IMG/VR virus record: IMGVR_UViG_2648501437_000025
Length of the DNA stretch: 38,438 nt
Strand: one strand, 5' to 3'
From: a virus
Lineage: Duplodnaviria; Heunggongvirae; Uroviricota; Caudoviricetes
Shown here: piece by piece, positions 20,226 to 22,852 of the stretch
Position numbering within the stretch: position 1 is the first letter of the stretch
Layout: each line of letters starts with the position of its first letter
Notes under the pieces: generated by a model
Told to the model about the DNA's origin: nothing
Seen by the model: only the letters and a program-made list of their open reading frames with translations
Database searches by the model: none
Made by a program: the position numbers and the translations under genes

Positions 20226-20477
20226 CTAACAGGATGCTCTGACTCGCAATTCATCCAGCAGTTTATCATTTCCCATAATGTCACTTACCCTCATCGGTAA
20301 AAAAATTGCCTTTCGACCATTACGATACATCATTGATTTTGGGGTTTCAGGGAAGTAATCCATTTCGACTATAACTGACAGGTCATCACGACGTATGACT
20401 GCGTATTTGCTACTAAATAGTTTCTTTATTTTTTCCACGATGCCTCCAGGTTTATAAGTACAAAAGGTTATATCCAC
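20226..20477 (-). CDS. Hypothetical 83-aa protein in an AT-rich segment
   Basis: ORF in a visibly AT-rich stretch between the Doc cassette terminator and the nin genes; no recognisable motif. Confidence 0.4.
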   Translation of the reverse strand: MDITFCTYKPGGIVEKIKKLFSSKYAVIRRDDLSVIVEMDYFPETPKSMMYRNGRKAIFLPMRVSDIMGNDKLLDELRVRASC

Positions 20478-20623: not shown

Positions 20624-20643
20624 AAAAAACCCGCCGAAGCGGG
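20624..20643 (-). terminator. Intrinsic terminator (cUUCGg-loop hairpin + U-run) after the Doc cassette
   Basis: Plus strand aaaaaa-cccgc-cgaa-gcggg; the same 22-nt element recurs at 21464. Confidence 0.6.
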
Positions 20644-20661
20644 TTTTCATTAGAAGCATCT

Positions 20662-21156
20662 TTAGTTTTGCTGTTCTATTTTAAGCTTGATAGTTTCATA
20701 CAAAACAATAGTTGCGCCTGTTTTACATAATTCCCGACTGTCATACGCACGAGACCAATAACACAACCAATTTTCAAGCTCTTCTCGTGTATAAATTTTA
20801 CAGGCCAGCCCCTCAGCCATCTCCACAACTTCATCGCCTGGTGCGGTTAATTCGTATCCATTTAACAATAAAAAAACCGCACCAGCCATCATTGCTGTGC
20901 GCTTGTTTGCATTGGCAAATGGATGATTCTGAATCAGACTTTCAATCAATACCGATGCCAGTACAAACATGTCGTTGGTTTGCTCATACCATCGAACCAT
21001 ACTGGGACGAGACTGAGAAGAACTTAAATTATCAACACTCAGCACACCAACAGGTTCATCTGGTGTTTGAAGCTCAATTAAAAGGCGATTAATTTCAGTA
21101 AGATCATCAACCGAAAGGTAGTGCACTCCTTCAACAATCTCAGCCATAGAGCACAA
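20662..21156 (-). CDS. doc: Doc-family toxin (Fic/Doc fold)
   Basis: Contains HPFANANKRTAMMAG, a variant of the Fic/Doc HxFx(D/N)(A/G)NKR active-site motif; preceded by a small partner ORF. Confidence 0.8.
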   Translation of the reverse strand: MCSMAEIVEGVHYLSVDDLTEINRLLIELQTPDEPVGVLSVDNLSSSQSRPSMVRWYEQTNDMFVLASVLIESLIQNHPFANANKRTAMMAGAVFLLLNGYELTAPGDEVVEMAEGLACKIYTREELENWLCYWSRAYDSRELCKTGATIVLYETIKLKIEQQN

Positions 21157-21167
21157 TACCCATCATT

Positions 21168-21344
21168 ACACTTTTGAAAGATCTTCCATTGCCTTCTCGT
21201 AACGAGAAAAACCGAAATCGAAAGCATTTTTCACCTGCTCACGATGAGTGCAATTTTCATCGATAGCCGGGCGCGGAGCTGCCACAACGCTTTTATCGCG
21301 AGGGGGAATAGTCAATCGCGGGTGTTTTTTTAGTGCGTAGCTCA
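21168..21344 (-). CDS. Putative antitoxin partner of Doc (58 aa, family not recognised)
   Basis: Small ORF (MSYALKKHPRLTIPPRDKSVVAAPRPAIDENCTHREQVKNAFDFGFSRYEKAMEDLSKV) with AAGGG RBS, ending just upstream of the Doc start; below the 60-aa track cutoff. Confidence 0.5.
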
Positions 21345-21463
21345 TTGGTGTACCCTTACTTCTCCGTCCTGTTCTTTAACAAAAATTAAGTCAATACAAA
21401 ATTAGTCAGGCTAATGTTGTTAGCATAGCCTAATACCAATCGTATTCACAACCACAGTACGTG

Positions 21464-21483
21464 AAAAAACCCGCCGAAGCGGG
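21464..21483 (-). terminator. Intrinsic terminator (cUUCGg-loop hairpin + U-run) at the 3' end of the hok locus
   Basis: Identical core to the 20624 element: aaaaaa-cccgc-cgaa-gcggg. Confidence 0.6.
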
Positions 21484-21553
21484 TTAAGTGCGGGTGCGTT
21501 GAGGATGCCTGACATATCAGAGGTGGCGGGAGATTACTCTCCCGCCCGGTCTC

Positions 21554-21709
21554 TTACTCCTCAGGTTCGTAAGCTGTGAAGACAGCGACCTCCGTCTGCC
21601 CGGTTCGGATTCGTACCTCGCAGAGGTCTTTCCTCGTTACCAGTGCCGTCACTATGACGGTTAAACAGATGACGATCAGGGCGACTAACATCGCCTTTTG
21701 CTGCTTCAT
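21554..21709 (-). CDS. hok: Hok/Gef-family type I toxin
   Basis: MKQQKAMLVALIVICLTVIVTALVTRKDLCEVRIRTGQTEVAVFTAYEPEE is near-identical to E. coli HokC/Gef as I remember it; AAGGAG RBS. Confidence 0.85.
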   Translation of the reverse strand: MKQQKAMLVALIVICLTVIVTALVTRKDLCEVRIRTGQTEVAVFTAYEPEE

Positions 21710-21766
21710 AGCCTGCATCTCCTTGACCTTTCGGTCCGTAAGAGGCAATCTATATGTGACGAGCAT
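21554..21766 (-). CDS. mok: Mok (in-frame N-terminally extended reading frame over hok)
   Basis: 70-aa ORF MLVTYRLPLTDRKVKEMQAMKQQ... matches the MokC-style extension; GAGG RBS upstream of the ATG at 21766. Confidence 0.6.
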   Translation of the reverse strand: MLVTYRLPLTDRKVKEMQAMKQQKAMLVALIVICLTVIVTALVTRKDLCEVRIRTGQTEVAVFTAYEPEE

Positions 21767-21806
21767 ATAGGGGCCTCACTTCGATTTATAGTCGGGTGGG
21801 GCTTTT
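21745..21806 (+). ncRNA. sok: Candidate Sok-like antisense RNA (approximate bounds)
   Basis: Plus-strand hairpin gcctcac...gtggggc followed by TTTT at 21773-21806, antisense to the mok translation-initiation region; 5' end not determined. Confidence 0.35.
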
Positions 21807-21949
21807 ATCTATCTGCCGTTGGTGTTCATGCCCGAGGCTGATAGCCTCAAGCACCCGCAGCAATTTTACTTAATTTCCCTTTAGTCAGAAATCATTTTTT
21901 AATCTATCTTGAAACAAGACTCAAATTCACAAATAAATTAAATATAAAA

Positions 21950-22852
21950 CTAAAACTCTATTTTTTGTGCCGGACGTGAGTTTAAAATCCAGCACTCCTG
22001 ATGTGTATGATGTATAGTTAGTAGATTGTCAAACTGAGATTTCTTAGCGTCAAATTCCATTTTATTTTTAAAGTCAACATTAAAATCTCCTGTTTCAATA
22101 GAGGCAAGAGCTTTGAGTCTATTGCATTCAGCATGCATATCAATTATATCGCTAAAACCTTCGCTTTTAATTCTTTTATTAACATAGTTCGTATAAATCC
22201 CTGCATGTTTATAAGAATCCATCACAGTGTATAATCCATCACCATCAATATCTGTAGGAGATGACATCCATTTAAAAACATGTAGAAGAAAAATATTTGC
22301 TGACCAAGGAAACACCACCCCATTAGCAAATGTTTCTGAAGTACCAGAACTAAGACTTTCATTAAGATTAGTCGCACCGATTAAGATCACATCGGTTTCA
22401 AACTCGTTCCGTTTACCAGCACCTACAAAATTAAAGGTCCCGGCATAGCATTGCCCAAGATAAACAACAGCATTTTTAAGATTTGGGGCTTCCTTCAAAG
22501 CCTTCAGTAATTGGCTTGGTGGGATAGGTTTCTGTGCATCAAGTCCATGAGGGCCACCATGACCAGTTACAAACATAACTATGTTATCATATGTATTATC
22601 ATTTAAGTCATTAAAAAAAACTGCTGATGGTTTTGACTTAAAAGGATATCTAGAAGCGAGTGCAAAAGCACCATCGTAATTCATTGAAGGGCTATCTATA
22701 TATATCGAAATATCATCTGGATTGATACCTGCCTTTTCGAGGCACATCACACCAAAGACTAAATCGACAACATGACGAAATTCCACTGCAGCTTTCGAAC
22801 AAGGCAAAAACATCACCCACCTTGTGCGTTCAGACCTAAGACTCATATACAT
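21950..22852 (-). CDS. Clan CD (legumain/caspase-like) cysteine peptidase-like protein
   Basis: Motifs NIVMFVTGHGGPHG and NAVVYLGQCYAG, 37 residues apart, follow the hydrophobic strand + His-Gly ... hydrophobic strand + Cys layout of legumain/caspase catalytic dyads; AT-rich gene; alternative start at 22813 with AAGGTGG RBS. Confidence 0.55.
   Translation of the reverse strand: MYMSLRSERTRWVMFLPCSKAAVEFRHVVDLVFGVMCLEKAGINPDDISIYIDSPSMNYDGAFALASRYPFKSKPSAVFFNDLNDNTYDNIVMFVTGHGGPHGLDAQKPIPPSQLLKALKEAPNLKNAVVYLGQCYAGTFNFVGAGKRNEFETDVILIGATNLNESLSSGTSETFANGVVFPWSANIFLLHVFKWMSSPTDIDGDGLYTVMDSYKHAGIYTNYVNKRIKSEGFSDIIDMHAECNRLKALASIETGDFNVDFKNKMEFDAKKSQFDNLLTIHHTHQECWILNSRPAQKIEF

Follow-up and report, generated by a model that had tools for sequence, protein, structure and literature searches.

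A Doc-family toxin and an unnamed 59-aa partner form a putative toxin-antitoxin cassette in a Rac-like Escherichia coli prophage

A putative type II toxin-antitoxin cassette

The window analyzed here, that is, the whole 38,438-nucleotide (nt) stretch of IMG/VR virus record IMGVR_UViG_2648501437_000025, is a Rac-like lambdoid prophage of Escherichia coli. Its minus strand carries a cassette of two genes. The first encodes a protein of 59 amino acids (aa), a putative antitoxin (21166..21345, minus strand), here called the partner; the second is doc (20662..21147, minus strand), which encodes a 161-aa toxin of the Doc family (Fic fold), a predicted EF-Tu kinase. Our analysis indicates that this cassette is probably a self-contained type II toxin-antitoxin moron, composed of a Doc-family kinase toxin and a cognate antitoxin that does not belong to the Phd/YefM type. 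Phage morons are autonomous accessory cassettes, in the sense of Hendrix and Juhala. The toxin and the type of module are already known, and the new element is the antitoxin candidate family. Judging from its sequence, the partner most likely founds a conserved family of Doc antitoxins that is unnamed in the databases and lacks a DNA-binding domain.

An initial annotation, made from the letters of this DNA alone, had described the cassette as a Doc toxin gene with an unrecognized small partner between two identical hairpins. The open reading frames (ORFs), the catalytic motif and the repeats were re-read, and all of them were found at the positions given there; they belong to the minus strand. 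The partner had been given 58 aa, a length corrected here, as ORF 21345..21166 encodes 59 aa. The order along the minus strand, 5' to 3', is hokD/sok, a hairpin (21485-21464), a 118-nt spacer, the 59-aa ORF, 18 nt, doc, 16 nt and a second hairpin (20645-20624). The end of the partner ORF and the ATG of doc are separated by 18 nt in the same frame, with the tandem stops TAA TGA.

The toxin gene

By its sequence, the doc product is a Doc-family toxin, a known and already annotated kind. It cleared the cut-offs of the Pfam model PF02661 Fic (45.3 bits, cut-off 24, E=1.6e-11) and of the NCBIfam model TIGR01550 DOC_P1 (120.7 bits, cut-off 38.65, E=3.8e-35), the latter along profile positions 2-122 of 122, and it matched PHROG 577, 'Doc-like toxin', with E=1e-48. 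The RefSeq name is already 'type II toxin-antitoxin system death-on-curing family toxin', so the Doc-like identity given in the initial annotation is borne out by the family thresholds and by RefSeq alike. The protein has 161 aa when translated from the ATG at 21147, and would have 164 aa if translation began at an in-frame TTG at 21156. The closest structures in PDB were 9vzc_A, the Doc of Enterococcus faecalis (E=6e-14), and the P1 Doc 3k33 (E=1.8e-4 with phmmer, residues 53-115). Defence models of PADLOC-DB v2 gave only weak partial matches to Doc (E>=0.0016), to candidate-system (PDC) models.

The catalytic motif HPFANANKRT, read from the sequence, occupies Doc residues 75-84 (20896..20925, minus strand). 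It had been regarded as a variant of the Fic/Doc motif, but residues 75-83, HPFANANKR, match exactly the published Doc consensus HXFX(D/N)(A/G)NKR (PMC13034048), and the kinase-type Lys is present. This Lys, found in place of the Gly of Fic proteins, inverts ATP binding, so that Doc acts on EF-Tu Thr382 as a kinase and not as an AMPylase (PMC7180214). By homology with P1 Doc, the prophage toxin should phosphorylate EF-Tu Thr382 and arrest translation.

In an alignment of 27 Doc homologues with identities of 63% or more, drawn from Escherichia, Salmonella, Providencia, Morganella, Serratia, Pantoea, Dickeya, Xenorhabdus and others, residues H75, F77, N79, N81, K82, R83 and T84 were invariant. 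Proteins of this subfamily are about 160 aa long, and their C-terminus is extended by some 30 residues with the conserved pattern W-L-x-x-W-S-R-x-Y-D-S-R-x-L-C, which is absent from the 126-aa P1 Doc. An AlphaFold2 prediction of Doc alone, made with the 27 homologues, reached a predicted local distance difference test score (pLDDT) of 52.8, and the model was too poor for use.

Conserved pairing of the partner with Doc

In all 93 informative loci, the gene preceding Doc/Fic was that of the partner, immediately upstream and at a distance of 2-22 nt. This was the case in all 80 IMG/VR loci, which were retrieved with the Doc alignment and have the partner 9-22 nt upstream of Doc, and in 7 of 7 genomes, where the loci were retrieved with a subset of 11 partner-family sequences and the partner is again directly upstream of Doc (Serratia, Citrobacter, Kluyvera, Hafnia, Rosenbergiella, Yersinia pestis and an Orbaceae genome). 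Six diverged partner homologues (41-50% identity) were also followed by a Doc/Fic gene in every case, at gaps of 2-5 nt, and some of these pairs are chromosomal, with no phage genes nearby.

The pairwise distances between partner proteins and those between the Doc proteins correlate (r=0.92, 54 unique pairs). Since the divergences correlate while the flanks and promoter regions are reshuffled, the partner and Doc are inherited as one unit. The gene order, co-direction, close spacing and conserved pairing are the pattern of a type II toxin-antitoxin operon. A three-gene system that would include hokD or the downstream 83-aa gene was considered and rejected, as both neighbours vary or are missing in other loci.

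One of the pairs stands in a different phage setting. The partner homologue P0233, which NCBI names Pseudomonas syringae, is encoded with its Fic gene in a lambda-like tail module of a prophage (loci L220/L221, 3001-3641). In L220 the pair follows a Phage_tail_L gene and an NlpC/P60 tail protein gene, a classical moron slot other than the one used in E. coli.

The partner protein

The partner had been said not to resemble Phd, and the profile search proposed for it in the initial annotation agrees with this. The protein has no Pfam, NCBIfam or PADLOC match, and no meaningful Pfam match at E<=1 was found for any of 35 family members. An hhalign comparison of the partner with P1 Phd, using a Phd sequence identical to that in PDB 3HRY/3K33, gave a probability of 1.4%. 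When the partner-family profile was compared with PDB sequences, only chance-level matches were obtained, the best of them to a ribosomal protein (E=0.94), and no Phd chain was among them. A Foldseek search of PDB with the AlphaFold2 model of the partner returned zero matches. The small protein is named 'hypothetical protein' or 'bacteriophage protein' in every public source checked, including all 61 clusters described below, and its PHROG match is to group 2208, 'unknown function' (E=5e-42). Literature searches by accession, PHROG identifier and keyword found no paper on these proteins or on this pair.

The family itself is readily detected. An exhaustive hidden Markov model search of 1.84 billion representatives gave 36 partner-family representatives (clustered at 50% identity), 35 of them with lengths of 38-95 aa, and a search with the family profile gave 61 clusters at 90% identity. 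The family extends from Enterobacterales through an Orbaceae genome to the protein that NCBI names Pseudomonas syringae, and the consensus of the 36 representatives is M..A..K..rL.IP.RDK..vA.P.P...H..QV.NAF...F.RYEKA..eLSKV.

Comparisons between seven genera showed that the synonymous sites of the partner gene are half to fully saturated (proportion of synonymous differences, pS, 0.39-0.98), while the proportion of nonsynonymous differences (pN) is 0.03-0.23. The ratio of nonsynonymous to synonymous substitution rates (dN/dS) was 0.05-0.19 where it could be computed. Since dN/dS is low with synonymous sites near saturation, the partner is a real gene under selection. These values bear on the hardly tenable proposal that the 59-aa ORF is non-functional, a chance ORF or leader peptide, and that Doc is an orphan, decaying or neutralized in trans. 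Such a proposal could draw on the annotation of the ORF as nothing more than a 'hypothetical protein' that no family library recognizes, but purifying selection at saturated synonymous sites together with the strict pairing effectively refutes it. The amino acid sequence is also conserved from Enterobacterales to the protein named Pseudomonas syringae and includes a confidently predicted helix, the Doc motif is intact, and a search of the whole window found no Phd/YefM homologue.

AlphaFold2, run with the family alignment, predicted a helix at partner residues 34-57 with a pLDDT of about 95. This helix is amphipathic, and within the family it is more strongly conserved than the rest of the protein. 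The 33 N-terminal residues are extended in the model, with no regular secondary structure, and contain the near-invariant IPxRDK motif. The model and the length of the protein leave no room for, and give no sign of, a DNA-binding domain of the Phd/YefM, ribbon-helix-helix or AbrB type. An antitoxin of the Fic alpha-inh type was also considered and rejected: no conserved position of the alignment fits (S/T)xxxE(G/N), and the only conserved Glu sits in F-S-R-Y-E-K.

Proposed mechanism

We infer the toxicity, the EF-Tu target, the direct binding of the two proteins, the lability of the antitoxin, the activity of the promoter and the biological role of the cassette in the following proposal. The partner and doc would be transcribed from a promoter of the cassette and transcription would stop at its own terminator, an arrangement that would allow expression in a lysogen. 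Doc would act on EF-Tu as described above, and the amphipathic helix of the partner (residues 34-57) would dock into the concave groove of Doc. This docking is proposed because the C-terminal helices of P1 Phd and E. faecalis Phd, which are mutually unrelated in sequence, both bind in this way. The partner would thus neutralize Doc and, since its N-terminus has no DNA-binding fold, would do so without acting as a classical operator-binding repressor. If the antitoxin is labile, its decay would probably kill or arrest cells that have lost the prophage, as well as cells in which gene expression is shut off, for instance by an infecting phage.

A more elaborate version is possible, although we regard it as doubtful. 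In it, Doc would be inhibited by two prongs of the partner, with the C-terminal helix anchored in the groove and the N-terminal IPxRDK(x)VxA segment plugging the active site as a pseudo-substrate, and the cassette, devoid of classical autoregulation, would be an anti-curing or abortive-infection device of the prophage. In this connection, the EF-Tu loop around Thr382 reads GGRTVGAG, and partner residues 16-23, RDKSVVAA, loosely resemble it. The Ser of the KSVVAA segment is not conserved in the family, so substrate mimicry by the partner is only speculation.

Several observations weigh against the interpretation of the cassette as a type II toxin-antitoxin moron. Simple docking of the helix does not explain the high conservation of the N-terminal motif of the partner. 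The partner is without the DNA-binding domain common to most type II antitoxins, and near-identical alleles of it stand behind unrelated promoters. A sigma-70 consensus scan flagged no promoter before the partner gene, and the start of the E. coli doc gene, after its 18-nt spacer, has only a weak Shine-Dalgarno sequence. The two weakest family matches tested, P0047 (E=6e-5) and P0052 (E=7e-4), have no adjacent Doc. Finally, a role in defence is purely speculative, as no PADLOC defence model matches.

The two matches without Doc (loci L091-L093 and L094-L095) may be false positives; otherwise, the small protein would not be confined to partnership with Doc. The P0047 gene comes after an asparagine synthase gene, and a terminator is next. 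P0052 lies on a high-GC contig among small genes without Pfam matches, two genes upstream of a gene for a 144-aa protein with a HEVGH metalloprotease-like motif.

Some of these points would also suit a different function, in which the small protein is an obligate cofactor, specificity adaptor or sensor of a Doc-type kinase harmless to its own host, such as a kinase that modifies a phage target or another non-essential target, or one that acts only during infection. The invariant IPxRDK motif has no counterpart in Phd-type antitoxins, there is neither a DNA-binding fold nor a conserved operator, and the two distant homologues without Doc might reflect a more general small binding module. We nevertheless find this explanation unlikely: the small gene comes first, and the gaps of 2-22 nt, strict co-occurrence and co-divergence make up the canonical signature of type II toxin-antitoxin systems, while the catalytic motif of Doc is that of EF-Tu kinases. 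In addition, a Fic/Doc toxin paired with the non-Phd antitoxin PanA was found to block translation and to be neutralized (PMC8832971).

Comparison with known systems

The toxin-antitoxin reading was compared with the characterized systems of similar composition. The P1 Phd-Doc system (PDB 3K33, 3DD7) is alike in having a Fic-fold Doc with HxFx(D/N)(A/G)NKR and the kinase Lys, an antitoxin gene located upstream in the same operon, and a prophage as carrier. The C-terminal residues of the partner, about 25, are predicted to be helical, as are residues 51-73 of Phd, which bind Doc (PDB 3dd7_B). The differences are that the partner has no detectable similarity to Phd and no N-terminal Phd/YefM DNA-binding domain, that the toxin of the window is 161 aa long with a C-terminal extension while P1 Doc has 126 aa and matches it weakly, and that the cassette belongs to an integrated lambdoid prophage whereas P1 is a plasmid prophage.

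A small antitoxin without a DNA-binding domain is found in PaaA2-ParE2, from a cryptic prophage of E. coli O157:H7. PaaA2 has about 63 aa, is largely disordered and lacks a DNA-binding domain, and its helices neutralize the toxin by wrapping it. A small antitoxin of this kind, such as PaaA2, is the nearest functional analogue of the partner. The two systems differ in the fold of the toxin, which is that of ParE, in the sequence of the antitoxin and in regulation, as PaaA2-ParE2 has a third-gene regulator, PaaR2. The cassette described here has no such conserved third gene, since its flanks vary.

The closest solved Doc belongs to the chromosomal Phd-Doc system of E. faecalis (PDB 9VZC). The E. 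faecalis Phd shares no sequence similarity with P1 Phd, and its residues 52-79 form a bent helix in the concave surface of Doc (PMC13034048). Unlike the partner, which shows no similarity to it, this antitoxin has an N-terminal DNA-binding domain of beta-sheet type, which recognizes a palindromic operator.

Class I Fic antitoxins (VbhA-VbhT, FicA-FicT) are likewise small proteins, of about 55-62 aa, encoded upstream of a Fic-fold toxin. They inhibit AMPylation through the alpha-inh motif (S/T)xxxE(G/N), whereas the toxin of the cassette is of the Doc type (NKR) and not of the Fic type (GNGR). In the PanA (DUF4065)-Fic/Doc system of Corynebacterium doosanense, a Doc-type toxin is neutralized by an antitoxin unrelated to Phd (PMC8832971), although the partner has neither DUF4065 nor any other Pfam match. 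The phd-doc locus of Dickeya dadantii was rejected as a characterized relative: its antitoxin has a canonical Phd domain and its gene overlaps doc, so it is a different system (PMC8198452).

Pairing of Doc with unrelated antitoxin families is already established (PMC8832971), and a specialist would therefore find the cassette plausible rather than surprising. The neutralization and regulation of Doc are known essentially from antitoxins with a DNA-binding domain. If our interpretation is correct, a minimal antitoxin without such a domain would join the Doc repertoire, annotation pipelines would gain a model for a gene that is now missed or left unnamed, and the combination of about 26 helical residues and a short conserved peptide would offer a compact system for dissecting the inhibition of the Doc kinase.

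Terminator hairpins at the cassette boundaries

The cassette lies between two copies of the same 22-nt hairpin, as initially described, and the copies form an exact direct repeat, AAAAAACCCGCCGAAGCGGGTT, at 20624-20645 and 21464-21485. The 18-nt core of the repeat had an expected count of 0.00 in 100 dinucleotide-preserving shuffles, and was found twice as an exact copy and once with 2 mismatches, at 2005-2022. Read on the minus strand, both copies are AACCCGC-UUCG-GCGGGUU followed by a U-run, which corresponds to an intrinsic terminator with a UUCG tetraloop, and the 56-nt stretches that hold them fold at -18.5 and -15.4 kcal/mol. A consensus terminator scan of the window missed both hairpins; judging from the sequence, stem pairing may run on into the T-run, so that the scanned tail keeps fewer than 5 T.

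The two copies have different owners. The upstream one (21464..21485, minus strand) was found only where hokD is the neighbour, is missing upstream of the cassette in hok-free loci, and is the only copy that remains at empty sites with hokD and no cassette. Since it is tied to hokD and missing from hok-free loci, it can be assigned to hokD as its intrinsic terminator, outside the cassette and marking the 5' boundary of the latter. The downstream copy (20624..20645, minus strand), located 16 nt past the doc stop, marks the 3' boundary. Most loci from other genera (6 of 7 genome loci) also have a hairpin with a T-run after doc, with an identical CCCGCTTCGGCGGG core in Citrobacter, and the same hairpin follows doc in hok-free contexts. 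As it follows doc across genera and unrelated flanks start after it, it is the terminator of the cassette itself.

The 22-mer is also widespread elsewhere. The exact sequence was detected in at least 120 viral contigs. The contexts upstream of it were of 115 different kinds, and 115 lacked hok and doc. A target-site duplication was therefore rejected as the origin of the repeat, as the hairpin pre-exists at hokD without the cassette, after doc without hokD, and in 115 unrelated contexts. The suggestion that the hairpins bound the cassette holds in that both mark its limits, but the upstream copy belongs to hokD and neither is an insertion scar. Identical generic terminators of this kind are junctions where modules are exchanged or deleted.

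A third related terminator hairpin, AACCCACTTCGGTGGGTT, lies at positions 2005-2022 of the window (minus strand) and has two compensating changes in the stem. Its presence elsewhere in the prophage fits a hairpin design that is a generic phage terminator.

Empty site, flanks and distribution

Comparison with prophages that lack the cassette, which the initial annotation had proposed, revealed an empty site with precise limits, where hokD, a single hairpin and the gene that otherwise lies downstream of the cassette come one after another. A synthetic sequence made of the joined flanks and a single hairpin matched several E. coli prophages in one piece (97% identity, 100% of the length). In strain PEC148, hokD and one hairpin are followed by the same 83-aa, DUF1367 and DUF1364 genes, and the 818-bp insert is exactly absent. 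The homology with a prophage of O104:H4 starts exactly at the doc hairpin, and at least six unrelated downstream flanks were found in the IMG/VR loci, each beginning right after the T-run of the doc hairpin. The earlier suggestion that the cassette was acquired as a discrete moron is thus sustained by the precise empty site and by flanks that diverge directly after the doc terminator, but not by the hairpins, which are no insertion footprint. A moron architecture, with its own terminator, a putative promoter of its own, and presence or absence among related phages, is supported.

The interior of the cassette was present in 125 of 5,426 complete E. coli genomes (~2%), at 86-100% identity and always in the chromosome, and no copy was found among the E. 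coli plasmids of PLSDB. APEC O1 and the O104:H4 outbreak lineage are among the carriers. The exact partner protein is encoded on about 1,000 or more public contigs, and so is the exact Doc protein.

The same polymorphism could be the result of loss, if recombination or slippage between the identical terminators deleted an ancestral cassette and the empty site is the deletion product, in which case the hairpins carry no information on acquisition. An exact 22-bp repeat with copies 840 bp apart is a plausible deletion substrate and would leave one copy, as observed, and the 22-mer is a generic terminator that occurs independently at hokD, at hok-free doc and in at least 115 unrelated contexts. 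As the explanation of the present distribution, we judge loss to be quite improbable: hok-like matches occur in 4,712 of the genomes and the cassette in only 125 of 5,426, and the pair also occupies other slots (the tail module, chromosomal sites away from phage genes and hok-free prophages), with at least six downstream flanks, all of which marks it as a clearly mobile unit. Gain and loss at shared terminators are, moreover, not mutually exclusive.

Upstream region and regulation

A candidate promoter of the cassette is located in the spacer that follows the hok terminator. It is an extended -10-like element, TGGTATTAG (TGnTATTAG; 21430..21438, minus strand), which would give a 5' untranslated region (UTR) of about 85 nt. 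The TGGTATTA extended -10-like element is conserved upstream of the cassette, and the hok terminator is just upstream of it. Of 49 distinct upstream regions, 31, from several genera with otherwise unrelated flanks, have TGGTATT[AG] or T[AG]GTATTA ahead of the partner ATG. The distance from the element to the ATG is 59-117 nt, and 93-117 nt in all but one. Because the consensus scan did not flag this element, the assignment of the promoter is only tentative.

An inverted repeat, AGGCTA-N12-TAGCCT (21408..21431, minus strand), overlaps the -10-like element and extends just 3' of it, and is a candidate operator or 5' UTR hairpin. Other variants of the cassette have different inverted repeats at the equivalent position. 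Partner alleles that differ by 2-4 residues sit behind unrelated upstream regions (the window against L044, and L059 against L064), which makes a conserved operator recognized by the partner unlikely. Together with the lack of a DNA-binding fold in the partner, this suggests that the usual autoregulation of type II systems may be absent from the cassette.

Other features of the upstream regions were also recorded. A palindrome of the putative 5' UTR, GGATGT-N3-5-ACATCC, with a variable loop, is present about 60-40 nt before the partner ATG in L003, L004, L062, L086 and their relatives, from several genera, and may act as an operator or as an RNA hairpin. Within E. coli, the promoter and 5' UTR form a mosaic (L028, L034 and L046; L044 and L057), in which ORFs of 86-98% identity have at least three upstream regions that are not related to one another. 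The homology to the window ends at the start codon of the partner in about 35 E. coli genomes.

Genomic setting and neighbouring genes

The cassette is located in the early-right (replication-to-nin) region of the prophage, where it comes right behind the type I toxin locus hokD. The other genes of the window include RecE/RecT-sized ORFs and genes for replication, DUF1367, DUF1364 and lysis, in an order that matches annotated E. coli relatives. The locus is a clean example of lambdoid modular exchange at generic terminators, with type I and type II modules stacked in one variable slot.

Downstream of the cassette, the 83-aa ORF (20226-20477, minus strand) matches PHROG 1813, of unknown function (E=1e-34), and RefSeq annotates a shorter form of 70 aa. 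It is placed outside the cassette because it is retained at the empty site.

Upstream, the hok/sok type I locus (21554-21856, minus strand) is complete and includes the sok/leader region. Hok (21709..21554) has 51 aa and lies within a mok-like ORF of 70 aa; it matches the Pfam model HOK_GEF (E=1.7e-23) and is annotated as hokD in RefSeq. The Rfam model sok RF01794 was found at 21707-21856 with 99.9 bits, against a gathering score of 59. The Rfam scan of the region gave nothing but sok above threshold, and its sub-threshold matches overlap the terminator hairpins.

In the O104:H4 strain FDAARGOS_349 (L010, 2413-3725), the cassette stands back to back with genes for a RelE/ParE-family toxin and a helix-turn-helix (HTH) protein on the opposite strand. 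This prophage therefore has three toxin-antitoxin modules (hokD, partner-doc and RelE-HTH) in about 1.7 kb.

Directly upstream of hokD is a 300-aa ORF (21950-22852, minus strand), which had no PHROG, NCBIfam or PADLOC match and a weak match to Peptidase_C13 (clan CD, caspase/legumain-like; E=2.9e-6). Related prophages have different cargo in this slot, namely QueH in K56-43-un, with further genes taking the place in PEC148 and O104:H4. The motifs VTGHGGPHG and YLGQCYAG of this ORF resemble the His/Cys catalytic dyad of the caspase type, and from these sequence features it may be a further moron or a defence candidate.

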